DNA from: Candidatus Thorarchaeota archaeon
GTDB taxonomy: Archaea > Asgardarchaeota > Thorarchaeia > Thorarchaeales > Thorarchaeaceae
DNA length: 64,000 bases
NCBI GenBank assembly: GCA_008080745.1
Contig: SHMX01000005.1
Coordinates: forward strand, 31,515-95,514
Direction: 5' to 3'
How positions within the stretch are numbered: position 1 is the first letter of the stretch; each line of letters opens with the position of its first letter. A model generated the notes under the pieces. That model worked only from the letters and a program-made list of their open reading frames with translations. It had not been told where the DNA came from and ran no database searches. A program made the translations under genes and the position numbers. This document shows, piece after piece, positions 461 through 54,991 of this stretch.

Positions 461-626
461 CACTGACACCTGATTGTTTTAACTATTGTTAATTATGTTT
501 AGTATGCTTATGAAACTTTCGACTAATGATTTTCAAGAAACAGATTGAACGAAATATGGTCTGTCTATCTTGGAATGTAATAATATCTGATATAAGTCAC
601 CAATCACAGATACGGTACAAATAACA

Positions 627-1349: not shown

Positions 1350-1371
1350 AACGTAATAATATGATTGTACC

Positions 1372-1893: not shown

Positions 1894-1979
1894 CTCTGTT
1901 TATTCTCCTCAATCAACCTTTTTATTGGCATAATGAATTATGATACTTAACCAATATTCAGCTCTCCAGAGGTATTTGT

Positions 1980-2822: not shown

Positions 2823-2843
2823 GCAATCTTAGAAATATTAACT

Positions 2844-3461
2844 ATGGTTAACCTTAATAAGGTGGAAACCCAACCTATATTGATGGAAATGTTAGAGTAT
2901 GTTATTATTGTACTTGCAGTCGCTCTTTTTGGATTACAACACAGTGGTTTATCAGCACTCTCTGTGAAGACACGCATTATTGATCGTTGGGGAAAGACTG
3001 GTTATTCAAGACTCTACACCATTTCTGCGGGTATCACACTTCTCCTAGCATTTCTTTCGATGCAATTTTGGGACTGGTTCTATTTTCTATACAGTCCTGT
3101 TAATATTTTCACCTTTATCATCGGTTTAGTCTTAATTGTAATTGGAATGATAATTGCGTATATTGCCACAGGGGTGATATCAGTGAGCACCGTTGCTGAT
3201 ATGAGAACAGATCGAAAGGCAGAACTAGTTACTGATGGTATTTACTCGCGAATTCGTCATCCCTTATATCTAGCTACAATTCTCTTATTCTTGGGTCTCG
3301 CACTGTTGTACTTTCCTTACTTGGAGGTGTTAGTATTCTCATTTGCTATGATTGGATACACGTTGATTGGGGCATATCTTGAAGAGAGAAAATTGGTGAT
3401 TCATTATGGACAGGATTATGAACAATACCGAAAACAAGCTGGTTTCATCTTGCCAAAATGA
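2844..3461 (+). CDS. Isoprenylcysteine carboxyl methyltransferase (ICMT)/NnrU-family membrane methyltransferase
   Basis: Multi-TM protein whose C-terminal region carries the ICMT-family signature: GIYSRIRHPLYLATILLFLG, then EERKLVIHYGQDYEQYRKQAGFILP (RHPxY ... EE..L...G..Y..Y). It lies 22 nt downstream of the partner gene on the same strand. Confidence 0.7.
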   Translation: MVNLNKVETQPILMEMLEYVIIVLAVALFGLQHSGLSALSVKTRIIDRWGKTGYSRLYTISAGITLLLAFLSMQFWDWFYFLYSPVNIFTFIIGLVLIVIGMIIAYIATGVISVSTVADMRTDRKAELVTDGIYSRIRHPLYLATILLFLGLALLYFPYLEVLVFSFAMIGYTLIGAYLEERKLVIHYGQDYEQYRKQAGFILPK

Positions 3462-3467
3462 GATGGT

Positions 3468-3926
3468 CTATCCGAAGTGGTTTCCCTTTGAATCAAGCAT
3501 CTTCTGAATCTTTGATAGATGCCGTCCTCTTTTTACAGCTTTGGGGCTTATTTCATGCACTTTGCCATGCTCAACTACGTAATGTTCAACCTCCAATTCC
3601 GGGATGAAATGACGTTTTACATCCTCTGTGATAAAATGTAATTGGACACAATGAGGGCTGCCATCCACCGAAAGGACCACTATTCGTTTGAGTTGAGAAT
3701 AACGCACAAAAGAGGCAATCTTGAAACCTGCTTGATTAACGTGAGATTCTTCCAAGCAGATATGAAGAACTGCATACCCTTCATCTCTCTGGGCGAATTC
3801 TTCAACTATCTCAGGATATCTCTCCATCATACAGGTTCCTATTAGAAGTAGTTGCCCCTTCTCTCGTATGTATTGAGCGCCTACGTTAGTACTCATTAAT
3901 GGTTGCGATTCATCCATGAAGACCAC
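3468..3926 (-). CDS. Hypothetical protein
   Basis: 152-aa ORF immediately downstream of 3927..4886 on the same strand, with contiguous coordinates. No recognisable motif. Confidence 0.4.
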   Translation of the reverse strand: MVFMDESQPLMSTNVGAQYIREKGQLLLIGTCMMERYPEIVEEFAQRDEGYAVLHICLEESHVNQAGFKIASFVRYSQLKRIVVLSVDGSPHCVQLHFITEDVKRHFIPELEVEHYVVEHGKVHEISPKAVKRGRHLSKIQKMLDSKGNHFG

Positions 3927-4886
3927 CTACCATTTTCTTCTGATTGGTGGTTCTTTTTCTTCTTCTCTTGGTATCCATTGGTCTACCAAGGGTGCAGCAA
4001 CTCTACCTATGATATCTCCTTCAAATACATAGTTCATACGTGCTAAGGATACAATAGCTCCATCATAGGGGCTTTTTACCTTGCCTCTGCCTTGTATCTC
4101 CCCAATGACATCGTTATTTCGAATGACCTCTCCTAGATTCACCTTGGGGACAAAAAATCCTTCATTATCTGCATTGATGTGTTGAAGTCTACCGGTGAAG
4201 ATGCTTGAGGTTTCTATCTTCTCTCCTGGTATCATATCTTTAATTCTCATCAGATTGACAATGGCCTCTCTTACCTCCACTGCAGCCTGACTGTCAATCT
4301 CGTTCTTTGAACCTCTCATTTCGATGGAAACTGTAGGTATACCCTCATGAGCTGCCTCTGTTGTAAGAGATCCCCTAACGCCTGAACTCTCAATTACCAA
4401 CGGAAGGGATATTTGTGAGGCTAAGTTTCTAACATGGATATATTCTCGGTGCATTGCTATGACATGGCTAACGCATGCCTGTAATCCCGTCTTTAGATGA
4501 ATTACAAAGTCGGCCTGGACTGCTCTTCTCCAAATTTCCCATGAAATCCGTTCTGTCACTGTTCCATGTTCATTTCCTGGGAATACTGAATCCATGTCTT
4601 TCGAATCCAGTGGTGATACCTTTGTGCCTAGTCGAAAGGCTAATGGATTACCAACGGGTAGGACCGTTACAGAGCCATCGATTCGGTCGAGTTTCTCAAG
4701 ATGCTGCATTATCAGAAAACTGGCATACATTCCAGTTGCTGAGAGACCGTCCATTGCAGCAAGGATGAGTACATTTGGTCTTTCTCTGCCAAATGTGTAA
4801 AATCCTAAGGTCGTACCTGTCTTGGGGTCGATATCGATTGCATCAACGGAGGCTTTTACCATATTCATCCCTTCTGCTGACTTCAT
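3927..4886 (-). CDS. AstE/AspA (succinylglutamate desuccinylase/aspartoacylase)-like deacylase family protein, possibly non-canonical
   Basis: 319 aa. LILAAMDGLSATG, LPVGNPLAF and DFVIHLKTG resemble the AstE/AspA-family core motifs (GGxHGNE, NP.A, DLHT), but the expected His/Glu zinc ligands in the first motif appear substituted. Confidence 0.45.
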   Translation of the reverse strand: MKSAEGMNMVKASVDAIDIDPKTGTTLGFYTFGRERPNVLILAAMDGLSATGMYASFLIMQHLEKLDRIDGSVTVLPVGNPLAFRLGTKVSPLDSKDMDSVFPGNEHGTVTERISWEIWRRAVQADFVIHLKTGLQACVSHVIAMHREYIHVRNLASQISLPLVIESSGVRGSLTTEAAHEGIPTVSIEMRGSKNEIDSQAAVEVREAIVNLMRIKDMIPGEKIETSSIFTGRLQHINADNEGFFVPKVNLGEVIRNNDVIGEIQGRGKVKSPYDGAIVSLARMNYVFEGDIIGRVAAPLVDQWIPREEEKEPPIRRKW

Positions 4887-4958
4887 TTCAATCTTGTACT
4901 TTTATCTAATAAGAAGCAGTGTATCACTTGGTTGGAAACTAGTGAATCTCTCGATTCT

Positions 4959-5684
4959 CTAGAAATTAAAGAGAAAGACATCTGTACATCGCTCATCAGA
5001 GGAAAACGTGTCATGTCTACTAATTGCATAAGGGCTCCCTACCGATTTATGCTCAAACTCAAATAGGTCAGTATGTCCACAGCGTTCCGGGTTACCAATC
5101 CATATGAGGGGTATTCCGGATTCAACTAAATTGGCGCTTGCCATTGATAGGTATGGTTCCCAACTAACGATTGTCAGTGAGGGTTCGAATGTTTGAATAG
5201 TTTCTATAGCTGTCATTTTTTGTACCCATTTAGGATATCCAATATTATATCGCCCCGTCTTAGCATCTGTAGCTATAATTTTTTGATCAATCTCCCGTTT
5301 CAGGAATTCTGACAATCTGCCATCTCCACTCATGACTTCAGCTATAATGATATTTTGTTTCTGGGGAGTAATGCTCTCTCGTACGATATCTACCAGTTCG
5401 TGTATAAACTCTTGACTATATATTTGAAATATCCACCTTCCTCCAGCATTGGATCCATTACAGTATTCTTTTACGGAAAACTCGTTCTCAATGACTCCGA
5501 AGAGCTCGATAACTTTTGAGAACGGAAGTAGTTCCTCATGGACATCTATGAAGACATCTTCTCGCTCATACATCCATTTGGTAGACATACGCGGCGTTCT
5601 ATCTACTCTCCTTTTTTCACTATCCATTCCGTCATAATCCACAAAGGTGATTACAAACATTATTCGATTTCGAAACTTTCCCAT
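4959..5684 (-). CDS. Hypothetical protein (possible Rossmann-like fold)
   Basis: 241-aa ORF. The IIIAEVMSGDGRLSEFL segment weakly resembles methyltransferase motif I. No firm assignment. Confidence 0.4.
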   Translation of the reverse strand: MGKFRNRIMFVITFVDYDGMDSEKRRVDRTPRMSTKWMYEREDVFIDVHEELLPFSKVIELFGVIENEFSVKEYCNGSNAGGRWIFQIYSQEFIHELVDIVRESITPQKQNIIIAEVMSGDGRLSEFLKREIDQKIIATDAKTGRYNIGYPKWVQKMTAIETIQTFEPSLTIVSWEPYLSMASANLVESGIPLIWIGNPERCGHTDLFEFEHKSVGSPYAISRHDTFSSDERCTDVFLFNF

Positions 5685-5755
5685 GCTTGGTCATACTAAG
5701 TAGGCATGATACAAAAGCAAAAAGACCTATATACTTACTTTACTAATCTATCATA

Positions 5756-6268
5756 GTGGTCCTAATGGCAATCACACGAAGAATACTACTGGTATCAGTA
5801 CTTGTCATGTGTCTGACCTTCGCTTTACCCACGACGGTTCAGGGATGTGATGCTCAGTGCAAATATGATGATTTCAGTGTGGTCGTTGATTATGCCAATT
5901 ATCTGGATCTTGACGGGGATTCTGCGGAAGACGACGTGTTGACCATTGCGCGGGTTTATCGAGATACTCAATATTCATCTGTACTGAAAACAAAGATATT
6001 CTCCTTTGTACAGGTTCCATCAGGAAGGATGTTTCACAGCATCGTGAATGTGAACGGTGATTATTCAAATCTTGTGATCACAATCGAGTGGTTTAACACA
6101 GCAAAAGAAGCTGGTTGGTACGACCTTGATATCTTTGTGATAGTTATCACAACAGATGGGGCTCAGTTCCTTTATACCAGTTTATCCTTTGATCCGCCTG
6201 AAGGCGGCGATCCTGGCCCTCCGTTATATCCGGATGTGGAAATCAACGAAACTGTAAGTCTGTCATAA
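5756..6268 (+). CDS. Small secreted protein with N-terminal signal peptide
   Basis: N-terminus RRILLVSVLVMCLTFALPTTVQG has a charged n-region, a hydrophobic core and an AxG/Q cleavage-like site. The protein is acidic and Asp-rich. 170 aa. Confidence 0.5.
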   Translation: MVLMAITRRILLVSVLVMCLTFALPTTVQGCDAQCKYDDFSVVVDYANYLDLDGDSAEDDVLTIARVYRDTQYSSVLKTKIFSFVQVPSGRMFHSIVNVNGDYSNLVITIEWFNTAKEAGWYDLDIFVIVITTDGAQFLYTSLSFDPPEGGDPGPPLYPDVEINETVSLS

Positions 6269-9438: not shown

Positions 9439-10092
9439 TCACCTGTTTGTGAATAGGTTGTTTACCAGCCACTGTCTTACCTCATCTAGTCCTGAGCCAG
9501 TTAAGCAGCTAGTTTCAAAGTATGATACAATCTGTGGATTGCTCTGCAATACAGCTTCAATCAGACCCTTGTCCATCGAACAATTCAAGTCACACTTGTT
9601 TCTAATCAGAACAAAATCGGGTGTATCGAATCGAGTTTGGGACACATAGTATCCGGTCAATAGATCCACCCATTCTGTTAGATCAATCAGAGATTGAATA
9701 TTATCACTGGCGAAAATAAGCAGGATTACATCGACTCCGCCAAGAGCAGTTCGACTGATATCCTTGAGTGCATGAATTGGCGAATTGAGTTGACCTGCGA
9801 TGTCGACCATTTGACACAGCCCTTCAATATCCTCGTCAACAAGGTCTGCTGCAGGAATGACTTCCAAATCTACAAAGAGCGTCCGGTGGTATTCCGCTTC
9901 GTCCTTAAGAAGCTCCTTTAAGCTCTTTCTCTCTCTCAACACGGTCAGCAGACTAGACTTGCCTACGGCCCCAGACCCTGCCATCAGAATCTTTCGTATT
10001 CCTGAATGGAGTTTTATTCTTTCAATTAGGCTTCGTGATGTCTCAGGTTCGGTTTCTTTGGTCTTCAATTCGCTCGTACTCATTGCTATCAC
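9439..10092 (-). CDS. Ras-superfamily small GTPase with ~40-aa N-terminal extension
   Basis: G1 GSGAVGKSS, G3 DIAGQ, G4 NKCD and G5 ETSCLTG. There is no C-terminal CaaX. Confidence 0.8.
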   Translation of the reverse strand: MIAMSTSELKTKETEPETSRSLIERIKLHSGIRKILMAGSGAVGKSSLLTVLRERKSLKELLKDEAEYHRTLFVDLEVIPAADLVDEDIEGLCQMVDIAGQLNSPIHALKDISRTALGGVDVILLIFASDNIQSLIDLTEWVDLLTGYYVSQTRFDTPDFVLIRNKCDLNCSMDKGLIEAVLQSNPQIVSYFETSCLTGSGLDEVRQWLVNNLFTNR

Positions 10093-12469: not shown

Positions 12470-15373
12470 GTGAGCGAGTTCATTAAGATAGAGAAAAAAT
12501 GGCAAAAACGCTGGAAGAAAGACAAAATCTTTGAGGCTGAACCCAAGCCCAAACAAAAGAAGTTCTTTCTTACCGTTCCCTATCCCTATACCAACGGTGC
12601 ATTACATATTGGTCACGGAAGGACCTATACTGTAGGAGACCTCATTGCACGATACAAACGAATGCGAGGCTATAATGTTCTATTTCCTATGGCATCGCAC
12701 ATGACTGGTACTCCCATTCTTGGTATGGTGGAACGAATAAAGGCGGGTGACCCCCAGGCTATCGAGCAATACAAACGAGATTTACGTCTCTATTTTGACA
12801 CCGAGGAAGAAGTGAATCGGCAATTAGGAAAATTCACTGATCCCTGGGCCACTGCAAAATTCTTCGCTGATATAATCTCTAAGGACTTTGATGCACTCGG
12901 TTATAGTATTGACTGGCGAAGAAAATTTACCACTGGTGATAAGATATACAATGCTTTCATCCGGTGGCAATATCTGAAATTCAAGGATATGGGTTACGTA
13001 AAACAAGGCAATTATCCACTTCTATTCTGCCCGAATTGTAGTAATCCCGTAGGAGAAGATGACCTACTAGAGGGAGAATCAGCTAAAGTCAAAGAATTTG
13101 TCGCTATCAAGTTTCCATTTGAGGATGGTTTTCTGGTTGCTGCAACCCTACGTCCTGAGACCATTTTTGGTATCACCAATATGTGGATCAACCCAACTGC
13201 AACCTATGTCTGGGCCAAGGTTGATGGTGAGAAGTGGCTCGTGGCTAAACCTGCTGCAGAAAAACTGAGGTTACAAGCAAAAGAAGTTGAGATACTTGAA
13301 GAGTTTCCAGGCTCCGAAATCATCGGGAAGACCCACAAGGCAATTCATGATGATCGAGATATTCCTATCCTCCCAGCTCCCTTTGTCAATCCTGAAAATG
13401 CCACGGGTGTTGTGTATTCTGTTCCGGGTCATGCTCCCTTTGATTATATTGCTCTTCGTGATTTGTGGGATAATCCATCAAGTCTGAAGAAATATGGCAT
13501 TTCTGCAGATGAGGTGAAGGCTATCGACATAATTGGAATAATTGACATCAAGGGTTACAGTGAATACCCTGCAAAGGACGCGGTTGAAAAACGAGATATC
13601 AAATCCCAAGATGAAGATAAGAAACTGGAAGAGGCCACTCAGGAGATATACAAGGCTGAATTCTATGAGGGTGTCATGAAGGACAACTGCGGTCAATTCT
13701 CTGGTCGTTTGATTAAAGAGGTCAAAGATGATGTTATTTCTTGGTTGAAAGAGAAAAATCGAAGTGATGCATTTTATGAGCCAGATACTCGTCCAGTAAT
13801 CTGCAAATGTGGTACTGATGTTCAAGTTGGGGTCTTTGCTGGTCAGTGGTTCTTAGATTACCAGAGCGAGGGATGGAAGGAGGAAGCTTGGAAGGCTTTG
13901 AATCAGATGGATATTGTTCCTGAGACCTTTAGGAACCTCTTCGAGGCCACTTTCGATTGGCTGACACAAAGACCATGTGCCAGAAAACGTGGGATTGGAA
14001 CGAGACTCCCCTTTGATGAAGAATGGATTATTGAATCACTGTCTGATTCTACCATCTACATGTCCTTCTATACTATATCACACCATATTAAGCAAAATAA
14101 GATTAAAGCTAAACAACTAATCTCTGCTTTCTTTGACTATGTCTTTCTTGGTAAAGGTAGTGTTACCAAAGTTGCTGAGAAGACGGAAATCGATGCGGAC
14201 CTGCTCAAGGAGATGCGGGAGGAGTTCAAGTACTGGTATCCAAATGATCAACGTCATACCGCTCCCTCTCACATATCCAATCATCTGAGTTTTGCTATAT
14301 TTCATCATGTGGCTATCTTTCCTGAGAAGTACTGGCTGCAATGCATTAGTATCAATGAACATGTCAATCTAGAAGGAATGAAGATGTCTAAGAGCAAGGG
14401 CAATGTTATTCCCCTGGTAGAGATTCCCAAGAAATATGGTGCAGATGTATATCGCACATATGCGATTTCTGCAGCCGAACCGGGTAGTCTTATGGACTTT
14501 CGAGAGAAAGATGTTCCTGCTGTGCGAAATCGGATTAACAACTTCCAAGAGGTCATCAAAAAATTTGTGAAGAAAACACCTAAGGTTTACAAAAAGAAAG
14601 AAAGATCTACTATGATTACTCGCTGGATTTTATCAAAGGTGAATTCTCTTGTGGAGCAATGTACCACTGATCTCGACAACTTTCGACTTCGGGATTATGC
14701 AATACGTGCAACATCCGAGATGTCACGAGCAGTCAATATGTATCTTAATCGACCGGAGGTCCAGAAGGACGAACGTGAGGGTACAATGGCTTATGTGGCT
14801 GATATTTGGGTGCGACTGATGGCACCTATGACCCCTCATATATGCGAAGAACTCTGGCATAAGATGGGACATGAGACCTATATATCGTTGACAGATTGGC
14901 CAAAAGCGGATAAGAAATTAATTGACCCCTCTGTTGAGGCCTCCTTCGAAGTAGTTCGAAACACATTGTCAGATATACGTGAGATAGCACGGCTACTGAA
15001 GGATACAACTCCCAAAAAAGTACACATCTATGTTGCGCCTCAGTGGAAATTCGATGCTATGAACAGTGTCCGTACAGCTGATATTCCCAATATAGTTGGT
15101 CAGATTATGAAACATCTTATGTCTAATCCTGAGTTCCGAAAACATGGTAAAGAAGTCAAGTCCATAGTTGATCGGATTGCGAAAGAGAATGGATTATGGG
15201 TTCACTCCGAGAGTGCTAAGGATGAGCTCCAAGTACTTGAGGGTTCGAAACCTTTCATGGAGCAGGAATTGGGTTTCGAAGTAACTATACATTCTGCAGA
15301 GGGTCCTGAATACGATCCCAAGAATAAGGCTCGATTCGCCTTACCTGGACGCCCCTCTTTGTTGCTTGAGTAG
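12470..15373 (+). CDS. leuS: Leucyl-tRNA synthetase (archaeal/eukaryotic type)
   Basis: HIGH motif (PYPYTNGALHIGHGRTY) and KMSKS motif (MKMSKSKGN). The 967-aa length with editing-domain insertion is typical of archaeal LeuRS. Confidence 0.95.
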   Translation: MSEFIKIEKKWQKRWKKDKIFEAEPKPKQKKFFLTVPYPYTNGALHIGHGRTYTVGDLIARYKRMRGYNVLFPMASHMTGTPILGMVERIKAGDPQAIEQYKRDLRLYFDTEEEVNRQLGKFTDPWATAKFFADIISKDFDALGYSIDWRRKFTTGDKIYNAFIRWQYLKFKDMGYVKQGNYPLLFCPNCSNPVGEDDLLEGESAKVKEFVAIKFPFEDGFLVAATLRPETIFGITNMWINPTATYVWAKVDGEKWLVAKPAAEKLRLQAKEVEILEEFPGSEIIGKTHKAIHDDRDIPILPAPFVNPENATGVVYSVPGHAPFDYIALRDLWDNPSSLKKYGISADEVKAIDIIGIIDIKGYSEYPAKDAVEKRDIKSQDEDKKLEEATQEIYKAEFYEGVMKDNCGQFSGRLIKEVKDDVISWLKEKNRSDAFYEPDTRPVICKCGTDVQVGVFAGQWFLDYQSEGWKEEAWKALNQMDIVPETFRNLFEATFDWLTQRPCARKRGIGTRLPFDEEWIIESLSDSTIYMSFYTISHHIKQNKIKAKQLISAFFDYVFLGKGSVTKVAEKTEIDADLLKEMREEFKYWYPNDQRHTAPSHISNHLSFAIFHHVAIFPEKYWLQCISINEHVNLEGMKMSKSKGNVIPLVEIPKKYGADVYRTYAISAAEPGSLMDFREKDVPAVRNRINNFQEVIKKFVKKTPKVYKKKERSTMITRWILSKVNSLVEQCTTDLDNFRLRDYAIRATSEMSRAVNMYLNRPEVQKDEREGTMAYVADIWVRLMAPMTPHICEELWHKMGHETYISLTDWPKADKKLIDPSVEASFEVVRNTLSDIREIARLLKDTTPKKVHIYVAPQWKFDAMNSVRTADIPNIVGQIMKHLMSNPEFRKHGKEVKSIVDRIAKENGLWVHSESAKDELQVLEGSKPFMEQELGFEVTIHSAEGPEYDPKNKARFALPGRPSLLLE

Positions 15374-25417: not shown

Positions 25418-26323
25418 TCATTCTTTCTCGTCCAAATCTTCAACCTCTTTTGTCTTTACAATCTTCACACTTACTCGTGTAAATACCGCAAAGAGCATGA
25501 GGAAAATAATTACTGCAATGATTCCTGCAACAATATTCTGAACCAAGGTGTTGAAAATGGTATAGATTCCCAACATGACAGCTGCAGTACCTACAGTAGG
25601 GATAAGTCGTTTTGCCTTTACAGAATTAACAAAATATGCTGCAAAGGGTGCAGATAATACCGCTCCTATTAATAGAGGAATTTCAAGCTGTAGGAACAGG
25701 TCTAGACTTAATGTCGTCCTCTCTAGGAGGATGTAGAGCCCGTATGATGTTCCCGTTGTGACTGCTTCTGCTGTTGCTGTGGAAGCAACTGCTTTCTTGC
25801 TCTTTCGTCCTGACAATATCTGACCACCAGCAACTACTGCGCCATAACCTCCACCACTCAAGCTCTTGTTTATAGCAGCAATCAACCCGAACATGGTGAC
25901 ACGTCTGTAGGTGAAATTCCACCTATATCTCTGAGCTACAAGAGATCCTGTGATAATCACGGTTAGTGCAACATAGACTGTGATAATCATTTCAGAAAAT
26001 GAAACTGCTATCGACACACCAATGGCAGCTCCTATCATACCCATAGTTGATAGAATTGCTGAAACCTTGAAGTCCTTTGATTCTGGATCCGAACTGATAG
26101 TACCTGCTAATCTGTGGAGTACGGCGGTAATTGCAGATGAAACAAATTCTGAAAATAATATTGCTGGAACAACTCGATATACCGAATAACCCCCTATTAG
26201 GAGAACGGGGGCCAAGATAGTACCATAACCAAGTCCCAAGGTAGAATCAAAATACTTGCTAATGAAACCGACAATGCACAATAATATGAACAAGAACATG
26301 AAAATGTCCATTCTTCTGCACAC
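25418..26323 (-). CDS. TauE/SafE (DUF81)-family membrane permease
   Basis: About 8 TM helices with the glycine-rich repeat motifs LGLGYGTILAPVLL and GGGYGAVVAGGQIL characteristic of DUF81. Confidence 0.65.
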   Translation of the reverse strand: MCRRMDIFMFLFILLCIVGFISKYFDSTLGLGYGTILAPVLLIGGYSVYRVVPAILFSEFVSSAITAVLHRLAGTISSDPESKDFKVSAILSTMGMIGAAIGVSIAVSFSEMIITVYVALTVIITGSLVAQRYRWNFTYRRVTMFGLIAAINKSLSGGGYGAVVAGGQILSGRKSKKAVASTATAEAVTTGTSYGLYILLERTTLSLDLFLQLEIPLLIGAVLSAPFAAYFVNSVKAKRLIPTVGTAAVMLGIYTIFNTLVQNIVAGIIAVIIFLMLFAVFTRVSVKIVKTKEVEDLDEKE

Positions 26324-26402
26324 TCCATTCTTTATATGGGGATTTCAAACTCGATACCTGCTTGGCTTCACTCCATATCCCTTTATTTTTGTTGCTTTTG
26401 TG

Positions 26403-27716
26403 TTATTCAATCATGGGATCAGGTAATTTGAGCCCTTCATGTGCTTTTTCCTCAAAGACCTGCTTAGCAGCCACCATGAGGCTCTTCTCAATACCTGCAA
26501 TGTTGTGGTTGGTTGCAACAAGCATGTTGACCTTGGTGATGAGACCGTCATCATCTGTCCAGTAGTTGTGGATGAGCGTTCCGCGTGGCGCCTCCACACA
26601 ACCTACACCTTGTCCTTTTCTTGGCTCGACATCGGATAGTTTCACATCTGTACTGACTATCTCTGGGTCCTCAAGTAGCATCTCTATCTCTTCAATGGCT
26701 TGGACCAATTCGATGATTCTAGCCCAGTGGTATGCAAAAGTTGCATGTATCACTCTTCCAAGCTTGTCACGCATCTCTTGTAATGCTTCGTCAGCTAAGG
26801 GTGTTGCCATCTTGTCGACAACATTGCATCGCGCTAGTGAATTAGCTCGCCAAATTCCCTCAGGATATCCTACAGGTTTGTAATAAATGTGGGTTGCATA
26901 GGAGTGGTCGGAAACATATTCGCCCATGTATTTCTTGTAACTCCTTGGTGTGAAATCTTCAACGATTTCTCCCTCGGGGTTCATCACACGCAGCTTACCT
27001 TCGTAGATTTCTAAGTTTCCTTTGTCATGCAGACCGACATAATATGTTGGTGCAATAGCTAATTTTGTAATCGGGTCCCAGTAATCAGTCACAACTTTCT
27101 TTGCTAGGTCTACAGTTTGAAGTGTCCAATCTTTTGCTTCTTTCACCCTCTCAAGGAATATGTCTCTTTTCTCTTCAGAGAATGGATTTAGCATTCCACC
27201 TGGTGTTGCAGTAACTGGATGTATTGCTTTACCACCAACTGCTGTTACCAGATCTTGACCAAACTTCATTACTTGCAGGGCGAGTTTTCCTACATCGGGT
27301 AATTCTTTGATAATTGTGGCAACATTGCGTTTTGCAGGGTCCGCAAAGGGTCCCACAACAAAGTCCGGAGCTGCCAAGGCAAAAAAGTGCAGAGCATGAC
27401 TGCTATATTGTTTTGCATTGATTGCCAATCTTCGTAATTTTATGGCTGCCGGAGGTGGAGTTACTTTCCATGCGTCCTCAACAGCTTTCACAGAGGCAAG
27501 ATGATGTGGAACTGGGCAAATACCACAGATTCGAGGAGCAACTCTTGGTGCCTCCTCAGCAAATCTGCCCTCTAGGAACTTCTCAAAGAATCGTGTGGAT
27601 GACACATTGAATTGTACATCCTTGACTTTACCATCTTTTGTCATCTTTACTGTTAACTCACCATGTCCCTCAAGTCGGGTGACTGGATGAATTTTGATAG
27701 TCTTTTCGTCAGTCAT
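26403..27716 (-). CDS. mvhA: [NiFe]-hydrogenase large subunit (group 3c, MvhA-like) with no C-terminal DPCxxCxxH motif
   Basis: N-terminal RLEGHG...RICGICPVPHH (L1 Ni-binding motif) and an internal EAPRGTLIHNY. The ORF ends ...LPDPMIE then TAA. I found no Cys-containing continuation in any frame within the ~95 bp before the next gene. Confidence 0.85.
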   Translation of the reverse strand: MTDEKTIKIHPVTRLEGHGELTVKMTKDGKVKDVQFNVSSTRFFEKFLEGRFAEEAPRVAPRICGICPVPHHLASVKAVEDAWKVTPPPAAIKLRRLAINAKQYSSHALHFFALAAPDFVVGPFADPAKRNVATIIKELPDVGKLALQVMKFGQDLVTAVGGKAIHPVTATPGGMLNPFSEEKRDIFLERVKEAKDWTLQTVDLAKKVVTDYWDPITKLAIAPTYYVGLHDKGNLEIYEGKLRVMNPEGEIVEDFTPRSYKKYMGEYVSDHSYATHIYYKPVGYPEGIWRANSLARCNVVDKMATPLADEALQEMRDKLGRVIHATFAYHWARIIELVQAIEEIEMLLEDPEIVSTDVKLSDVEPRKGQGVGCVEAPRGTLIHNYWTDDDGLITKVNMLVATNHNIAGIEKSLMVAAKQVFEEKAHEGLKLPDPMIE

Positions 27717-28627
27717 TTCTCTTCTCTCTCCTTGTCACGAATCTTTGAAAGATATGAAGCTCCATAATCTGTAAAGTAAAAGCTACCAATTGGGTCTGGA
27801 AATGCCTTTTCCAATTCCTCTGGGTCCATGTCTGCAATGGCACCCAATGCAGAGATTATCTTTGCTCCGTGATCTTTTATTCCTGGTGGGGGTCCAAAAC
27901 AGCCCTTACAAGGAGTATTCACTGTTGGACATTGAGCACCACACATCCCTATCGTTGCAAAACCTAGACAGAGATATCCCTGATCAAGGAGGCATTTGTC
28001 GGGATCTATATGCCCCTCATGAGCACGTTTGAACTTGGTTATACTCTTCTCTTTCCGTTCCTTTGGGCATTGGTCACAGACGGTCTTTTCTGGAAGATCA
28101 TATGGTTTTCCAGTGAGTAGCGCTGATAATGCCTCTAAGGTATTCTCGCTAGTTGGAGGGCATCCTGGAAACGGGACATCGAACTTTACAATCTCCGTAT
28201 TAGGTACAACACTCTCAGTAAAGCCAGGCATCTCTTCCTCAGGTATACGACCATCTTCTACTGTATCGGCTTTTAGGAATTTTCTCTCTAGTAATTCCTT
28301 GAGTTCCCACTGATTGCCAAGTCCCTGAACACCACCATAACATGAGCAAGAGCCCCATGCAACGAGAATCTTGGCCTTCTTTCTCATAAGTTTCAGTAGA
28401 TGAACATCTTCTTTTGTTCTGCAACTTCCCTCGACTAACCCAATGTGTATAGATTCATCTGGCATTGCCTCAAGGTCCTTCAGTTTGTAATCCACCACTG
28501 CAGGCCAGTAGACAATCTCAAGCTGTGGAAGTACTTCCAACAACGTTAGATGGAGATCTACTAATGATTGGTCACAACCCCAGCATGAGGTGAGCTGTGC
28601 AAGGGCAATTCGTTTAGCCATAATCAA
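27713..28627 (-). CDS. mvhG: [NiFe]-hydrogenase small subunit (MvhG-like)
   Basis: N-terminal LAQLTSCWGCDQSL and GSCSCYGG cluster ligands. The C-terminal Fe-S Cys clusters are CDQCPKERKE and CLGFATIGMCGAQC...CKGC. Confidence 0.8.
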   Translation of the reverse strand: MIMAKRIALAQLTSCWGCDQSLVDLHLTLLEVLPQLEIVYWPAVVDYKLKDLEAMPDESIHIGLVEGSCRTKEDVHLLKLMRKKAKILVAWGSCSCYGGVQGLGNQWELKELLERKFLKADTVEDGRIPEEEMPGFTESVVPNTEIVKFDVPFPGCPPTSENTLEALSALLTGKPYDLPEKTVCDQCPKERKEKSITKFKRAHEGHIDPDKCLLDQGYLCLGFATIGMCGAQCPTVNTPCKGCFGPPPGIKDHGAKIISALGAIADMDPEELEKAFPDPIGSFYFTDYGASYLSKIRDKEREEK

Positions 28628-29166
28628 TCACTCTCTCCTGCAGGATTGGGTCCAAGTCGCTTCACGGTTTCAACCATCGTCTTCACTCCTTCTGTAAAGA
28701 CATCTCCTTCCGCAGCACTTGCCCATTGTAACCTTATTCGTTCTGGTTCAAGTCCAGCAGATTCTACCATCTTCTGAAGCAAGGCAAAACGAGCTTGCAT
28801 TTTCAGATTTCCTGTAGAATAATGGCAGTCTCCTGGATGACAGCCAGAAATTAACACTCCATCTGCCCCTTGATTGAGAGCGTCAAGAATAAACGATGGG
28901 TCGATTCTACCTGTGCAGTTTACTCGGATAATTCTGACATTTGGTGGCATTTGCATCCTACTTGTGCCAGCTAGATCTGCGCCAGCGTAACTGCACCAGT
29001 TGCAACAGAACGCAACAATTCTAGGTTCAAATCCCTTTGCTTTCTTGCGTTTGGATTTCGTTGCCGTCTTTGGTTCTTGTGAAGTTGCTGTCAAGTTCGT
29101 GGGACCTCCCGCGGACAGTTTAGCTCCGGTTTGATGTCGCCCTATTAAGATTGCTGGATTAGTCAT
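28624..29166 (-). CDS. mvhD: Methyl-viologen-reducing hydrogenase delta subunit (MvhD-like)
   Basis: CCNWCSYAGADLAG...CTGRIDPSFILDALNQGADGVLISGCHPGDCHY is the MvhD/FlpD signature. It is the first gene of the mvhDGA-order operon on the minus strand. Confidence 0.8.
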   Translation of the reverse strand: MTNPAILIGRHQTGAKLSAGGPTNLTATSQEPKTATKSKRKKAKGFEPRIVAFCCNWCSYAGADLAGTSRMQMPPNVRIIRVNCTGRIDPSFILDALNQGADGVLISGCHPGDCHYSTGNLKMQARFALLQKMVESAGLEPERIRLQWASAAEGDVFTEGVKTMVETVKRLGPNPAGESD

Positions 29167-29252: not shown

Positions 29253-29486
29253 GTGATAATGGCGTTCATAATGGCAAAAGTAGACTCTCCAAAAGCGAGA
29301 GAAGTATTGGAAGAAGTACGAAATCTGGAAGAAGTCCAAGAGGCTTATCTTATCTATGGTGCATATGACTTGATAGTAAAGGGGAATTTCAAGAACCCTG
29401 AGGACCTGAGCGCATTTGTGGTTGATAGATTACGAGCAATAGAGGGAATCCATGATACAACCACTAATGTCTGTGCTACCTGCTAG
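29253..29486 (+). CDS. Stand-alone Lrp/AsnC C-terminal (RAM) domain protein
   Basis: 77 aa. AYLIYGAYDLIVKGNFKNPEDLSAFVVDRLRAIEGIHDTTT matches the RAM-domain pattern (Y.v.G.yD.......d...l..f....l..i.gV..t.T). Confidence 0.5.
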   Translation: MIMAFIMAKVDSPKAREVLEEVRNLEEVQEAYLIYGAYDLIVKGNFKNPEDLSAFVVDRLRAIEGIHDTTTNVCATC

Positions 29487-30921: not shown

Positions 30922-32802
30922 CTATCTTCTTGGTTTGTCATCCAACAATCCGAGTCTTCTCAGTGTGGTATCGAATGGAATGCCAGTTTCTATATCCCAC
31001 CCACGATATTCATAGTATTCGTCAAGCATCTGATTGAGTTCTACCACTTCTCCCTTATTCGGCCCTAATGGTGCTGGCTCGTCCGTAAGTCGTTTTGGTA
31101 ACTGATCATCTTTTCGTGATATTCCCAATCTGATATTGAACAGCCGATTGAGATTTACGATTCTCTCTCCTATGGTCTGTAGTTCTTCCCGGGTAAAAAC
31201 AAGTCCATTATGTATTCGGAGGGCAAGTGCAACATCTTCGTAATAGAATTCTGGAGGGATCTGTGTTCCATATTTACAAAGCCCCACACTCTCAATCATG
31301 ACCATATAGTCTTCACATTCCTTTACCATGATTCCTTTGTAGGTTGGATTCAGACGTTCTGCCATCTCTGGCAAGTATTCCTCACCAAATCGTTCTCTTA
31401 TCTCATCGTCAAATCCCGCCTCATCAAGCACAGGAAACGAATAGAGATGATCAGCTCCTCTTGCAGCTGTTACTGCAGCTAATCCCATAGATTTCTGAGC
31501 TCGTGGTTCTTGTCCGGCTATCTCTTGCTTCTTCACGGTCATAACGAATTTCTCTGTTCCCTTTCCAATCTTTTGAGCTGCGCGATAGCTTCCCTCGGCC
31601 AAGACATCACCAAAACCTTCACGCATTGCTATCATCTTGGTCAGTTTCACCACTGTTTCATGATTCCCCCACGTTAGATCTATCCCTCCTGTATCTTCAG
31701 CAGTTAATAGACCCTCATCCCATGCTTCCATTGCCCAGGATATAGTAGCACCAAGTGATATCGTATCCATTCCATATTGGTTTGCCAAATGATGCGAGTA
31801 GAGTACAGATTCGACATTATCGTTCCCACAACGGGAACCTAATGATGATTGCGACTCAAACTCAGGAGATCCTCCCTCATAGCAGTATGGTCCTGTGGGT
31901 ACAGCAGTAAACCTTCCACAGCGTTGTAGACAACTCCAATCTGCTCTTGGTTTCACAAGATAATCTTTCGTGATGGTTTCACCGCTGATTGCTTCATAGC
32001 CGTCAAATACTCCTTGACGCATATTGTAGCTTGGAAGTCTTCCAATATGATGCATAAGTTCTACAAGATTTGTTGTTCCATATCGCGCACGTTCGGGGGT
32101 GAAGGGATTAGCAAGCATACGTCTGTAGAACTCATCCATATGCCTAAGGTAATCTATTGGTTCAGCTACCTCGATTTTACCCGTTCCCCGTACTGAGATT
32201 GCTTTTATTTTCTTTGAACCCATAACAGCTCCAAGACCCGAACGAGCTGATGCTCTATCTCTGTCATTCATCACTGCTGCAAACCGAACTAGGTTCTCAC
32301 CGGCCTGTCCTATTGCTAAGACGCGGCTCTTTCTACCATATTTCTCTCTAAGATAATCATCCGTTTCAAAGACATCACTACCCCATATATCCTCGGCACT
32401 TTCCAGGGTAACATCAGAATCTCGGATATTCAGATAGACTGGATCTTTTGATGCGCCTGTAAATAATACCGCATCATATCCTGCAAGCTTAATTTCAGTA
32501 CCCCAAAAACCAGCAGAATGACTCTCACCCCAGACATTGGTCAATGGGGATAAGGCTGCGACCACTATTCTTGATGCTTGAGGAAACATGGATCCTGTCA
32601 ATAGACCGGTTGCTATACCCAATACATTCTTGGGCGATAGAGGATCGATATCCGGTGGAATCTCATCGTATAACACTTTAGAGAGATATCCTGCACCTAG
32701 AAGATACTTTTTTACAATATCTTCAGGTATCGGTCGTTTCTCTACTTCTCCTTTGGTTAGGTTGACCCAAAGAATCTCGCCACCTACTCCTTTCATTATC
32801 AA
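30922..32802 (-). CDS. Tungsten-containing aldehyde:ferredoxin oxidoreductase (AOR family)
   Basis: 626 aa with an AOR N-terminal domain (ILWVNLTKGEVEKRPIPEDIVKKYLLGAGYLSK) and family-typical internal blocks. It shows paralogous similarity to 41720..43654. Confidence 0.9.
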   Translation of the reverse strand: MIMKGVGGEILWVNLTKGEVEKRPIPEDIVKKYLLGAGYLSKVLYDEIPPDIDPLSPKNVLGIATGLLTGSMFPQASRIVVAALSPLTNVWGESHSAGFWGTEIKLAGYDAVLFTGASKDPVYLNIRDSDVTLESAEDIWGSDVFETDDYLREKYGRKSRVLAIGQAGENLVRFAAVMNDRDRASARSGLGAVMGSKKIKAISVRGTGKIEVAEPIDYLRHMDEFYRRMLANPFTPERARYGTTNLVELMHHIGRLPSYNMRQGVFDGYEAISGETITKDYLVKPRADWSCLQRCGRFTAVPTGPYCYEGGSPEFESQSSLGSRCGNDNVESVLYSHHLANQYGMDTISLGATISWAMEAWDEGLLTAEDTGGIDLTWGNHETVVKLTKMIAMREGFGDVLAEGSYRAAQKIGKGTEKFVMTVKKQEIAGQEPRAQKSMGLAAVTAARGADHLYSFPVLDEAGFDDEIRERFGEEYLPEMAERLNPTYKGIMVKECEDYMVMIESVGLCKYGTQIPPEFYYEDVALALRIHNGLVFTREELQTIGERIVNLNRLFNIRLGISRKDDQLPKRLTDEPAPLGPNKGEVVELNQMLDEYYEYRGWDIETGIPFDTTLRRLGLLDDKPRR

Positions 32803-33287
32803 GCATCCTCCTTATCATAGAGTATATCTTTATGTTTTTCATGCAGTTCAGAAATCCGCCCCTCCGGATCTTTTTCCTTCAGATCTTCTTCTGAGGTCAA
32901 CCAAATTGCATTTACTGGGCATCTTTCGACACACGCACCGCATTGAATACATTTGAATGCCTTTCCTGTGTCTGGGTGAATCCTAATCGCAAAGTATGGA
33001 CAAGCTTCAACGCATGCTCCAGTTCCATCACACCTCTTGTTGTTAACAATTACAACCCCCTTAGAGGTTCGCATAATTGCCTCATTTGGGCATGCCGTAA
33101 TACAGGGTGCATCTTCGCAGTTTCTACAAAAGAGTGGGAAGTCTAGTCCTGGTTCTATTCTAACAGCTCGTACCCGCGCTCTTTCTGGACTTATCACTTT
33201 GTAGAATTTCATGCTACATACATTCACACAGATCATACATCCAGTACATATATGGGGGTCACCAATAACAAATCTCAATTCGCTCAC
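32799..33287 (-). CDS. 4x[4Fe-4S] ferredoxin (AOR-associated)
   Basis: Four CxxCxxCxxxCP motifs (CTGCMICVNVCS, CRNCEDAPCITACP, CDGTGACVEACP, CIQCGACVERCP). Its stop overlaps the AOR start by 4 nt. Confidence 0.85.
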   Translation of the reverse strand: MSELRFVIGDPHICTGCMICVNVCSMKFYKVISPERARVRAVRIEPGLDFPLFCRNCEDAPCITACPNEAIMRTSKGVVIVNNKRCDGTGACVEACPYFAIRIHPDTGKAFKCIQCGACVERCPVNAIWLTSEEDLKEKDPEGRISELHEKHKDILYDKEDA

Positions 33288-41719: not shown

Positions 41720-43654
41720 CTATGCCAGCATTCCTCTCTGCTCAAGGTCCTTTACAACGAAGTCGAGATCCAGGTCCTCAAGAACTGATTTCTTAGGATA
41801 GCCTGTTTCTTTGTCACAACCTCGTAGTTCGTAATATTCGTCTAGCATATAGTCTAGATCTGGTAATCCGCCCTTAGATGGACCTGTCGGCATGGGTTCC
41901 TTCAGTAGCCTTCGTGGTAGAGTTTCATCTTTTCTCGTGATTCCAAGCCTGTGATTATACGCACGCCTGAGATGACTGATTCTGTCCGCAGATTGTCGTA
42001 CGTATTTGACATCTCCCCATTCTACCATGCCTGTCAATGCAGGAAGCACATTTGCAAAGGTATCAAAGTAAAATATCGGGGGCCACATAGTTCCATACTT
42101 GCATATGACTGCTGAATCAGTTATTGCATAAAGGTTCTCCATGTCATAGACCACCAAGCCCTTGTGGACTGGCGACATGATCTCCTGAATCTCCTCTGCC
42201 TTGTCCTCTCCAAATCTGCGAATAGATATCTCGGGAAATCCTAATTCTTCGAGACTGGAGAGACTTCGTAAGTGATCAGCACCTCTTACGTTGGTTGCAT
42301 AGGTAAGCCCTATTGATTGATGTGCACGAGGGTCTTGACCTGATGCCTCGAGTCCCTTTGAGTGAACTGCATATTTCCATGCTTCTCCGCCTATAATTTC
42401 TGCAGCTTTTCGAGTTCCGTGAGATAATAACTCGCCAATACCCTTCTCTCGTTTAGCAATTTTTTCAATTAGAGCGTTTATGGCATCAACATTACCCCAG
42501 GACAAATCTAATCCATCAGTGTCCTTCTCGGTAAGTATTCCCTTCTCCCAGAGTTCCATTGCAAAGCTGATGGTCTTTCCACAAGAAATTGTATCCATCC
42601 CAAGTAGATCACAACGATGTCCTTGATGGAATACAGCTTCAATATCACTATTCATACAATTAGATCCGAAAGCCATGAGTGTTTCATACTCGGGTCCACC
42701 AGCAGGGCCACCTGCGAATTTTCCCTCTTTAACACGATAGACGTACTTACAACCTATCCCACAGCCATGACAAGCTTCTTGGGCAATTCGGTATTTTTCT
42801 GCAATAATCTCCGGGCCTATTTTTTCAGCCTCTTCAAAGAAGCCAGTCCAGTGATTCTTTGTCGGTAACCTTCCTATCTCGTTAATCATGGCCACCAAGT
42901 CGGTGGTTCCATAATCTCTAAGGCTCCTGAGGAAATCTTTCCATAACGGGTCGTTTAGTCGCTCCATCTCTCTCTGGTTAGCCTCAAGATATGCATCCAT
43001 ATCATGTGCCTCCAGTCCAAGCGAGCCCCGTGCAGCAATCGCCTTTACATTCTTTGAACCCAATACTGTGCCGAGACCCGTTCTACCTGCCGCACGATAG
43101 TAATCTACAATGATAGCTCCATAGAGTACCCCATTCTCACCTGCAGGACCTATAGTTGCAGTTTCTATAGCTGGGTCTCTATGCTCCTCTCTAATCATAT
43201 CTGTTGTTTCATCAGTTTCTCGTCCCCATAATCTAGAAGCGTCACGAAGTTCCGCTTTTCCATCATTTAACCAGAGATAGACTGGTTTGGGCGATTTACC
43301 ATTAAAAATGACAAAGTCGAATCCCGCATATTTAATCTCGGGACCCAGGAAGCCGCCAACATGACTCTCCGCCCAAATTCCAGTTAGAGGGCTTTTTCCT
43401 GAAAACATCATTCTTCCTGAGGGTGAAAACATTACACCTGTAAGAGGGCCTGTACCGACGATGACTATATTTTCTGGTGAAAGTGGGTCTGTATCGGGAC
43501 CAGTTCTATCCCACAGAATCTTTGATGATATACCAGTTCCTCCAAGATAGAGTCTAGCCCATTCTTTCTCCATCTCCTTTTTGTGAACCTTTCCTAGGGT
43601 AAGATCCACATCTAGATAGTATCCTGCATAACCTTTGTATGGAAAATCAGTCAT
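41720..43654 (-). CDS. Tungsten-containing aldehyde:ferredoxin oxidoreductase (AOR family), second copy
   Basis: 644 aa with an AOR N-terminal domain and conserved internal blocks. Paralogous to 30922..32802. Confidence 0.9.
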   Translation of the reverse strand: MTDFPYKGYAGYYLDVDLTLGKVHKKEMEKEWARLYLGGTGISSKILWDRTGPDTDPLSPENIVIVGTGPLTGVMFSPSGRMMFSGKSPLTGIWAESHVGGFLGPEIKYAGFDFVIFNGKSPKPVYLWLNDGKAELRDASRLWGRETDETTDMIREEHRDPAIETATIGPAGENGVLYGAIIVDYYRAAGRTGLGTVLGSKNVKAIAARGSLGLEAHDMDAYLEANQREMERLNDPLWKDFLRSLRDYGTTDLVAMINEIGRLPTKNHWTGFFEEAEKIGPEIIAEKYRIAQEACHGCGIGCKYVYRVKEGKFAGGPAGGPEYETLMAFGSNCMNSDIEAVFHQGHRCDLLGMDTISCGKTISFAMELWEKGILTEKDTDGLDLSWGNVDAINALIEKIAKREKGIGELLSHGTRKAAEIIGGEAWKYAVHSKGLEASGQDPRAHQSIGLTYATNVRGADHLRSLSSLEELGFPEISIRRFGEDKAEEIQEIMSPVHKGLVVYDMENLYAITDSAVICKYGTMWPPIFYFDTFANVLPALTGMVEWGDVKYVRQSADRISHLRRAYNHRLGITRKDETLPRRLLKEPMPTGPSKGGLPDLDYMLDEYYELRGCDKETGYPKKSVLEDLDLDFVVKDLEQRGMLA

Positions 43655-44136
43655 TATTCGCTTCCCTCCTGAATACCAACTTTAGTTGATACCTGCTTCA
43701 TCCCAATCTGCCTTTCTAAATTTCCCTCTCCTTCAGTTTCCAGTCGGATAACACCATACTCACATGCTTTTATGCAGGCCGGATCACCATCGCACAGGTC
43801 GCACTTTATTGCTTTTCTGGACACAGGGTCTATTACAATTCCACCATAAATACAGGCAGAAACACAATTTCCACAACCTATGCAAACATCATTATTCACT
43901 GTGAGCGATCCAATAGAATTGGGGATTATTGCATTAGTCGGACATGCGTCAGCACAAAGAGGCTCTTGGCACTGAAGGCAGACCATTGGTATAATCAATC
44001 CCTTATGCTCATCTTTGAGAATCTGTATTCTTGCCCTAATAGGATTGAATGTGGATGTCTTTCTTGCTGAGCATGCTAGCTCACAATTTCTACAACCCGT
44101 ACAACTTTTTGCATCGATGACTAGGAGTTTTTTCAA
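43654..44136 (-). CDS. 4x[4Fe-4S] ferredoxin (AOR-associated), second copy
   Basis: CTGCRNCELACS, CLQCQEPLCADACP, CIGCGNCVSAC and CDLCDGDPACIKAC. It abuts the AOR start. Confidence 0.85.
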   Translation of the reverse strand: MKKLLVIDAKSCTGCRNCELACSARKTSTFNPIRARIQILKDEHKGLIIPMVCLQCQEPLCADACPTNAIIPNSIGSLTVNNDVCIGCGNCVSACIYGGIVIDPVSRKAIKCDLCDGDPACIKACEYGVIRLETEGEGNLERQIGMKQVSTKVGIQEGSE

Positions 44137-54754: not shown

Positions 54755-54991
54755 ATGTGTCTTGCAGTACCTGCCTTGGTCTTGAGTATTGAAGGGGACT
54801 ATGCCGAAGTTGACTTTGGCGGTGTTAAGAAGAAGGTCTGTGTATCCTTGCTTCCAGAGTTAGAACCTGGCGAGTATGTGATTATTCATACTGGATACGC
54901 CATCGAGAGTATGAAGCCTGAGGAGGCCAAAAAGACACTTGCACTTTTCGAAGAGATGGCACAAATATCACTTGATGATGAGAAGTCGTAA
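54755..54991 (+). CDS. hypC: HypC/HybG-family hydrogenase maturation chaperone
   Basis: N-terminal MCLAVP motif with the essential Cys2, then ...GEYVIIHTGYAIE. 78 aa. Confidence 0.7.
   Translation: MCLAVPALVLSIEGDYAEVDFGGVKKKVCVSLLPELEPGEYVIIHTGYAIESMKPEEAKKTLALFEEMAQISLDDEKS

Follow-up and report, generated by a model that had tools for sequence, protein, structure and literature searches.

We describe a hydrogenase operon in a 64,000 nucleotide (nt) stretch of DNA, hereafter the window, from Candidatus Thorarchaeota archaeon (assembly GCA_008080745.1, contig SHMX01000005.1, positions 31,515 to 95,514). The operon, vhuDGA, is encoded on the minus strand and its adjacent genes overlap by 4 nt each. 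In brief, vhuD (also named mvhD; 28624..29166) encodes an FlpD-type [2Fe-2S] subunit (PF02662), vhuG (27713..28627) encodes the small iron-sulfur (FeS) subunit of 304 amino acids (aa) (PF01058; 266.8 bits against the VhuG model NF045875), and vhuA (26403..27716), the third gene, encodes the large subunit of a group 3c [NiFe(Se)] hydrogenase. VhuA is 437 aa long, with an ATG start, and matches PF00374 (nickel-dependent hydrogenase) with an E-value of 1.3e-28. An earlier note on this DNA pointed out that VhuA ends just before the second pair of nickel-binding cysteines should begin. We find that VhuA is a naturally split large subunit and that the gene for its expected partner peptide, VhuU, is absent from the window; VhuU is probably supplied from elsewhere in the genome.

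The N-terminal nickel ligands of VhuA lie in the motif RICGICPVPH (residue 62); the EAPRG block follows at residue 375. Its C-terminus reads ...EEKAHEGLKLPDPMIE (…KLPDPMIE), followed by a TAA stop codon at 26403-26405, all as the earlier note had read it. The C-terminal DPCxxCxxH/R ligand motif is missing from the polypeptide, which is expected for the split VhuA sub-type. An identical protein is deposited at NCBI as TXT54818.1, 'F420-non-reducing hydrogenase vhu subunit A [Candidatus Thorarchaeota archaeon]'. The best 120 database homologues, 69-100% identical and from metagenome-assembled genomes (MAGs) labelled Thor-, Loki- or Odinarchaeota, are 435-445 aa long, save one fragment of 389 aa. 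The stop lies at the equivalent position in all of these 120 and in all 25 aligned Asgard sequences. A scan of metagenome contigs with VhuA gave two distant relatives (~60%).

The top NCBIfam model is the VhuA equivalog NF041785, aligned over profile positions 4-417 of 418 to residues 7-421 with 478.7 bits, and it outscores every other family by a wide margin. The top match in the PDB is chain g of 9sfi, a VhuA of 418 aa (E-value 9e-125, aligned over its residues 4-417); the same structure holds a separate chain M of 27 aa that matches VhuU. When placed on the fused MvhA structures 5odc, 9sw2 and 7t2r, VhuA spans to position ~411-420 and VhuU aligns to 423-452, so that the two pieces abut. Because the homologues share the end point, NF041785 ends where the protein ends and 9sfi has a separate VhuU chain, we conclude that the vhuA open reading frame (ORF) encodes a naturally split large subunit and is neither truncated nor mis-assembled. 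The alignment with MvhA and VhuA that the earlier note proposed thus puts the end of the protein at the natural split point of VhuA, and the resemblance it saw to the VhuA/VhuU arrangement of Methanococcus is borne out by NF041785, by the two chains of 9sfi and by the published Thorarchaeia VhuU sequences.

The Vhu hydrogenases of Methanococcus voltae, M. maripaludis and Methanocaldococcus (vhuD-G-A-U-B; PDB 9sfi/9t1s) are split at the same position as VhuA of the window. A VhuA of ~418-437 aa and a small selenocysteine (Sec) peptide, VhuU, with the motif UxxCxxH are common to methanogen Vhu and the Asgard system. VhuG and VhuD are partners in both methanogen Vhu and the window, and the D-G-A-U order is kept in most Asgard loci. 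The methanogen operon includes vhuU, whereas the operon in the window does not. It also includes vhuB, which is missing in the window, and the organism of the window is not a methanogen. VhuD of the window is an all-Cys form encoded without in-frame TGA, in contrast to the two-Sec VhuD of Methanococcus and Lokiarchaeota. Its true start probably lies downstream of the start of the 180 aa ORF, since residue 50 is where the FlpD domain starts and the orthologues, as called, are 110-173 aa long. The fused, all-Cys MvhA of Methanothermobacter and Methanothermococcus (5odc, 9sw2) and VhcA of Methanococcus match in fold and sequence over residues 7-414 (E-value 6.5e-105). They share the MvhADG architecture with the window, where partnering with HdrA through MvhD is presumed. 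These fused proteins are 472-475 aa long and have DPCxxCxxH within the chain, whereas VhuA of the window ends ~35 residues earlier, without the motif.

We did not find vhuU in the window. Six-frame scans of the 64 kb, reading TGA as Sec, gave no match to DP[CU]xx[CU]xx[HR] or to [DE]x[CU]xx[CU]xxH, and a relaxed motif in which the terminal His was not required gave none either. A tblastn search of the window with Sec-type and Cys-type VhuU returned only noise (at most 20.8 bits), whereas positive controls scored 42-103 bits. We also built a covariance model of the selenocysteine insertion sequence (SECIS) from 39 Thorarchaeota vhuU sites; true sites score 80-88 bits, and the best hit in the window scored 13.9 bits (E-value 0.15). 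The regions flanking vhuA, of 26 kb and 36 kb, are thus free of vhuU and SECIS. The spacer 3' of vhuA (26324..26402, minus strand) is the site of vhuU and SECIS in orthologous loci. It is 79 nt long to the GTG start of the following permease gene, or ~100 nt to the ATG start of another gene caller, close to the 95 bp given in the earlier note, and the six-frame scan agrees with that note that no frame encodes a Cys motif before the next gene. No degenerate remnant of vhuU or SECIS was detected in the 79 nt spacer or near leuS. The tRNA scan of the window gave zero genes, hence no tRNA-Sec, and the Pfam annotation of ~45 of its ORFs gave no genes of the Sec machinery. The absence of a small vhuU ORF at the locus, noted earlier, therefore holds across the window by motif scans, tblastn and the SECIS model alike.

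A split Vhu with a Sec-VhuU of ~50 aa and a eukaryote-like SECIS was described in Lokiarchaeota in 2016 (Mariotti et al., PMC4989117). Sec-VhuU has since been catalogued, with sequences, in Thor-, Sif- and Lokiarchaeia (PMC11227280, supplement 74), and the Atabeya- and Freyarchaeia also carry the VhuU system (PMC11291895). These studies deal with the lineage of the window and with the very split enzyme found there. The published Thorarchaeia VhuU reads M(T/S)(D/E)EIPEG(V/L)LNL(L/I)EMVVRCYDC-U-LSC(A/G)AH plus a C-terminal extension (PMC11227280), and a consensus for Thorarchaeia is M-T-(D/E)-E-I-P-E-G-L-L-N-L-L-E-M-V-V-R-C-Y-D-C-U-L-S-C-G-A-H, followed by a C-terminal extension. In the published sequences the motif is DCU in Asgard archaea, as opposed to DPU or DIU in methanogens, and the SECIS is eukaryote-like (AUGA...GA kink-turn type) in Asgard archaea as opposed to the methanogen type. 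The partner motif anticipated in the earlier note, DP[C/U]xxCxxH, consequently does not fit this lineage, which has D-C-U-x-x-C-x-x-H. A paper on Sec variants of group 4 hydrogenases (PMC13582414) has nothing on split or Asgard enzymes.

We surveyed a GTDB-based collection, one genome per species, for RC[YF]DCUxxCxAH with the Sec codon TGA, and obtained at least 120 loci. Among the matches listed, all but ~3 are Asgard-type vhuU (~117), including that of the cultured Promethearchaeum syntrophicum (L103), and ~100 of the listed Asgard vhuU loci have a vhuA homologue directly upstream or within ~1.5 kb. The remaining listed loci are mostly at the edges of contigs or sequence pieces, and a few are without a vhuA within reach. 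From the end of vhuU onward there is a conserved SECIS-like structure whose AUGA core contains the vhuU stop codon; 12 of its 20 pairs have compensatory changes. Typical Asgard vhuA-vhuU-SECIS contigs also occur under the labels 'Bacteroidales bacterium' (L004, SLSH01000336.1) and 'Nanopelagicaceae bacterium' (L026, DATKTW010000156.1), and several contigs labelled Hodarchaeota or Hermodarchaeota bear Loki- or Thor-type sequences. These odd labels, bacterial and archaeal, are probably due to binning contamination or mislabelling.

Thorarchaeia have two types of vhu operon, and the locus in the window is of type 1. Type 1 operons are flanked by genes for an aldehyde:ferredoxin oxidoreductase (AOR), a ferredoxin and an AsnC-type regulator, and encode VhuA and VhuG with 72-91% and 74-93% identity, respectively, to those of the window. 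Type 2 operons encode a VhuA with ~68-71% and a VhuG with ~50% identity to the window, and are flanked by hdrCB-hdrA-hdrA, as examined in L131 alone. The type 2 gene order is hdrCB-hdrA-hdrA-mvhD-x-vhuG-vhuA-vhuU. On L131 (positions 1-6004; Logan contig SRR10018916_394916), a Fer4_8/HdrC-like gene, a CCG/HdrB-like gene and two HdrA-like flavoprotein genes are fused to the type 2 operon, and a 77 aa ORF of no assigned function lies between mvhD and vhuG.

In a distance-based tree with 200 bootstrap replicates, the 15 distinct type 1 loci were monophyletic in 199 of the 200. A Sec-vhuU directly follows vhuA in eight of them (L007, L029, L080, L099, L101, L125, L133 and L135), a Cys-type variant in one (L134), and vhuU is missing in six (the window, L130, L124, L126/127, L128 and L129). 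Behind vhuA, the six vhuU-less loci have a spacer of 17-220 nt, in which tblastn and the SECIS model gave no match. Orthologues at 81-85% identity keep the adjacent vhuU. The six did not group together in any replicate (0/200), and L129 grouped with the vhuU-bearing L029 in 190 of 200. Because the vhuU-less loci are not monophyletic and L129 pairs with L029, vhuU was lost from type 1 loci at least twice independently, the deep type 1 branching being poorly supported. The split as such has already been described in Asgard archaea; the absence of vhuU from this locus is an exception among its relatives.

Some loci show other departures from the common arrangement. In the type 1 locus L134 (positions 3823-3975; GCA_013388835.1, JACAEL010000068.1) vhuA is followed by a Cys-type VhuU-like ORF, VEEKTPEAVLNLLEMVVRCYDCCLSCSAFMVVVDEDDKVIAKRDFVLGAA, in which Sec is replaced by Cys and the otherwise invariant His of the endopeptidase site by Phe. 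Inspection of the DNA downstream of it, by eye alone, revealed no conserved SECIS-like sequence. Sec-VhuU copies are also on the published list for this genome. The reverse case is found in L024 (positions 5742-5906; JAWOEX010000013.1, Thorarchaeota BLK6-1.bin.124), with the order AOR - AsnC - vhuU plus SECIS. Here vhuDGA is cleanly missing, 256 nt lie between the AsnC gene and the orphan vhuU, and the upstream region and the SECIS are kept. A 3' vhuU fragment (...DLVLGGG-UGA) with a SECIS of 56 bits is located at 3312-3405 on the minus strand of L055 (GCA_964610875.1, CAZSWP010000028.1), ~1.2 kb downstream of an intact type 2 vhuU, in a genome whose type 1 locus (L124) is without vhuU. This fragment may be a remnant of duplication or recombination.

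The ancestral neighbour of the type 1 operon is leuS, encoding leucine-tRNA ligase, which is convergent and within ~1.7 kb downstream of vhuA/vhuU in L007, L080, L126, L128, L134 and L135; in the remaining type 1 loci the sequence compared ends before this site or other genes are found there. In the window, leuS (12470..15373, plus strand) is 11 kb away from vhuA. The intervening block of ~11 kb (~15.4-26.4 kb), which most orthologous loci lack, begins exactly at the 3' end of vhuA with a gene for a TauE/SafE-family permease (25418..26323, minus strand). It further encodes TrmO, two MerR/GyrI-like proteins, DUF8328 and DUF362 proteins, and a cluster of a GlcD-like FAD_binding_4 gene, a Fer4_8/CCG (HdrD/GlcF-like) gene and an FAD_binding_4 gene. 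RBin_111 has this block in common with the window from the TauE gene through the GyrI-like gene. As the block starts at the 3' end of vhuA and leuS is displaced, the loss of vhuU in the window coincides with a rearrangement at the 3' junction of vhuA.

The closest relative of the locus is that of MAG RBin_111 (GCA_014728035.1, L130), which has the same gene order, including the TauE, DUF362 and FAD/FeS genes, and is likewise without vhuU. Identities between the window and L130 are 91.1% (aa) and 79.2% (nt) for VhuA, 93.1% and 79.3% for VhuG, and 91.0% and 81.2% for VhuD. Most simply read, the divergence dates from after the loss of vhuU. For VhuA and VhuG the nonsynonymous divergence (dN) is ~0.05 and the synonymous divergence (dS) is saturated, so that no numerical dN/dS is given; for VhuD dN/dS is ~0.05. 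In all six vhuU-less lineages VhuA is 436-438 aa long with every motif intact. As judged from these substitution patterns, vhuA is under strong purifying selection. This speaks against decay of the operon, as does an intact hypC gene in the window.

A candidate source of VhuU is the type 2 operon. In RBin_111, a type 2 operon with vhuU and SECIS is found on another contig (L119). The 90%-identity cluster of its VhuA has one other member, P0103, located on Logan contigs from SRR10018917 (L132), the run that also yielded the locus of the window, and from the sibling run SRR10018916 (L131). On these contigs vhuA is followed by a vhuU encoding MTDEIPEGLLNLLEMVVRCYDCULSCGAHLVVVDEEDREIVRKELVTGGG-UGA, with a SECIS of 87.7 bits (E-value 1e-21). 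This VhuU fits the published Thorarchaeia consensus and SECIS type, its stop codon lying inside the AUGA core. The P0103 contig has a GC content of 0.41, and its tetranucleotide composition correlates with that of the window at r 0.955. Its nucleotide identity to RBin_111 is 81.7%, compared with 79.2% for the type 1 locus of the window. We infer that the type 2 contig with vhuU belongs to the same organism as the window. The suggestion in the earlier note that the small peptide would be encoded elsewhere is hence supported: the sequencing run that holds this locus also contains a contig on which a vhuU with SECIS lies beside a paralogous vhuA.

The combination of a type 1 operon without vhuU and a type 2 operon with vhuU is found in two assemblies, RBin_111 (L130 and L119) and GCA_964610875.1 (L124 and L055). 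In the published whole-genome survey, RBin_111 has exactly one VhuU, identical to the L119 copy, which leaves one listed vhuU for two vhuA paralogues. The same source lists one VhuU for GCA_021498125, the genome of L129, and two for GCA_003345595, whose type 1 operon retains vhuU. Where a genome has two copies they are very similar. The vhuU genes of L099 and L120, from one genome, have a common QEDDDGELHE insertion and 89% nt identity, and the copies U and U_2 listed for GCA_004524445 show no differences from the shared DDIPEG on. In the pairs we compared (L099/L120, L036/L101 and those given in PMC11227280, supplement 74), the two VhuU copies of one genome resemble each other much more than they resemble those of other genomes, whereas the VhuA partners of such near-identical copies are only ~68-71% identical. 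This near-identity suggests gene conversion or selection for interchangeability, and near-identical VhuU alongside divergent VhuA would fit interchangeable peptides.

Methanococcus makes VhuU separately and docks it on VhuA; Hyp proteins complete the active site and an endopeptidase trims VhuU after the His. By analogy, VhuA of the window would provide the N-terminal Cys pair (RxCGxC) and VhuU the second pair of Ni/Fe ligands. The UGA of vhuU would be recoded to Sec via the eukaryote-like SECIS that overlaps the vhuU stop codon. We suggest that a vhuU once located 3' of vhuA in the window was lost together with the junction rearrangement, and that VhuU from the type 2, hdr-linked operon on another contig probably reaches type 1 VhuA in trans. 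As in Methanococcus, the peptide would dock onto VhuA after translation, the Hyp machinery would insert the NiFe(CN)2CO centre, and an endopeptidase would remove the VhuU extension after the His. Since assembly is already intermolecular, placing vhuU in another operon would alter only stoichiometry and co-regulation.

We consider it quite likely that VhuA of the window is a complete, functional split subunit of a cytoplasmic Mvh/Vhu-type hydrogenase and that its VhuU is supplied from elsewhere in the genome. With rather less confidence we propose that the specific source is the single vhuU of the type 2 operon. That this one gene supplies the Ni-ligand strand for two paralogous hydrogenases, the redundant type 1 copy having been lost repeatedly, is a reading towards which we lean only slightly; that one copy would be redundant follows from how nearly identical a genome's two vhuU copies have remained.

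Several points weigh against this proposal. The type 2 contig is tied to the organism of the window by run, composition and parallel divergence and not by binning or linkage. MAGs are incomplete, and the one vhuU counted for RBin_111 and for GCA_021498125 could be an undercount. A single VhuU would have to fit two VhuA paralogues that are ~69% identical. The activity of the Asgard Vhu enzymes and the assembly of VhuU with VhuA are themselves predicted from sequence. The searches covered 64 kb of a 224,846 bp contig in a multi-contig MAG. It should also be noted that the NF041785 score of 478.7 bits is below the equivalog cut-off of 800, a cut-off tuned to Methanococcales.

An assembly or sequencing artefact, in which an indel or a chimeric join cut off the C-terminal coding region, might be suspected in a metagenome-assembled genome in which synteny breaks immediately 3' of vhuA, and mis-assembly had been raised in the earlier note. 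The independent Logan assembly of SRR10018917, however, gave the identical protein and gene order, and the same order is found in a MAG from another study (L130). The stop position is common to the best 120 homologues and to the solved structure, and no frame downstream encodes the motif, so no indel could restore DPCxxCxxH in frame as that note had envisaged. The shared end point and the independent assembly leave this explanation practically no room. A second concern in the note was that the gene is inactive. The vhuDGA operon could be a relic, non-functional since vhuU was deleted and awaiting decay; vhuU is indeed missing, with a rearrangement breakpoint exactly at the 3' end of vhuA, and L024 lost vhuDGA yet kept vhuU, so the type 1 enzyme is dispensable in some lineages. 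Both the conserved end point and the strong purifying selection contradict inactivity: the sister loci are 79% identical in nt and yet VhuA, VhuG and VhuD are 91-93% identical in aa, with dN ~0.05 and dS saturated. All six vhuU-less lineages, representing at least two losses, have an intact VhuA of 436-438 aa with its motifs, and in the tree drawing, judged by eye, vhuU-less branches seem no longer than vhuU-bearing ones. We find a relic quite improbable.

Alternatively, VhuA might do without VhuU, as a non-catalytic scaffold or sensor or by using other ligands. This idea has no direct support other than the lack of a locally encoded partner. As in catalytic enzymes, there is strict conservation of the N-terminal ligand motif, the proton-relay motif RLEGH and EAPRG; a vhuU next to vhuA persists in orthologues at 81-85% identity, and every [NiFe] centre known so far requires four Cys/Sec ligands. 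We consider this alternative very improbable. Finally, a dedicated type 1 vhuU could have been relocated to a third, unlinked site and serve VhuA of the window specifically. Orphan vhuU genes are known, such as that of L024 without vhuDGA, and several Loki-type vhuU have no nearby vhuA or one ~1.5 kb off. Of the genome, only 64 kb were searched. Against relocation, the published survey lists a single VhuU for RBin_111, which is the type 2-linked copy, and likewise one for GCA_021498125, and neither vhuU nor a SECIS is present in the 26 kb and the 36 kb that flank vhuA. Relocation thus seems unlikely, though the least so of these alternatives, and supply of VhuU in trans from the type 2 operon is the reading that we prefer.

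An AsnC/Lrp-type small regulator gene (29253..29486, plus strand) is divergent from vhuD and is kept beside it in all type 1 loci examined. The genes for AOR (30922..32802) and a polyferredoxin (32799..33287), both on the minus strand, form the conserved upstream block of the type 1 locus (30922..33287). A second AOR gene with a polyferredoxin gene is found at 41720-44136 on the minus strand and is a paralogue of the pair beside the hydrogenase operon. The maturation chaperone gene hypC (54755..54991, plus strand), which the earlier note had marked for checking, is intact; it encodes a protein of 78 aa with the N-terminus MCLAVP and scores 76.6 bits against TIGR00074 (cut-off 48). The window also encodes two small GTPases of the Ras/Arf/Roc family, at 1372-1893 (plus strand) and 9439-10092 (minus strand), typical of the 'eukaryotic signature' proteins of Asgard archaea.

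The split itself is ordinary, and is already published and annotated for the phylum. In the available parts, the Asgard selenoprotein studies catalogue selenopeptides and SECIS elements and mention neither two paralogous operons in one genome, nor vhuU-less vhuA operons, nor one vhuU shared between two vhuA paralogues. What is modestly new here is that a vhuDGA operon repeatedly lost vhuU while remaining under selection, which would imply one selenopeptide gene for two hydrogenases. Split vhuA genes look truncated or pseudogenised, and a hydrogenase classifier that requires the two CxxC motifs can discard or mis-class them. This distorts the reconstructed H2 metabolism of Asgard archaea, a lineage central to hydrogen-based models of eukaryogenesis. 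Recognising the VhuU partner also shows that this H2 metabolism depends on selenium. If one vhuU does serve two enzymes, the strand that VhuU contributes to the catalytic site of a [NiFe] hydrogenase would be an exchangeable, separately regulated and shareable module, and both hydrogenases would depend on the supply of selenium and on a single operon being expressed. Selection for interchangeability would then have left its signature in the near-identity of the vhuU copies of a genome, and the occasional reverse loss, in which vhuDGA is gone and vhuU is kept, would fit such a shareable module.

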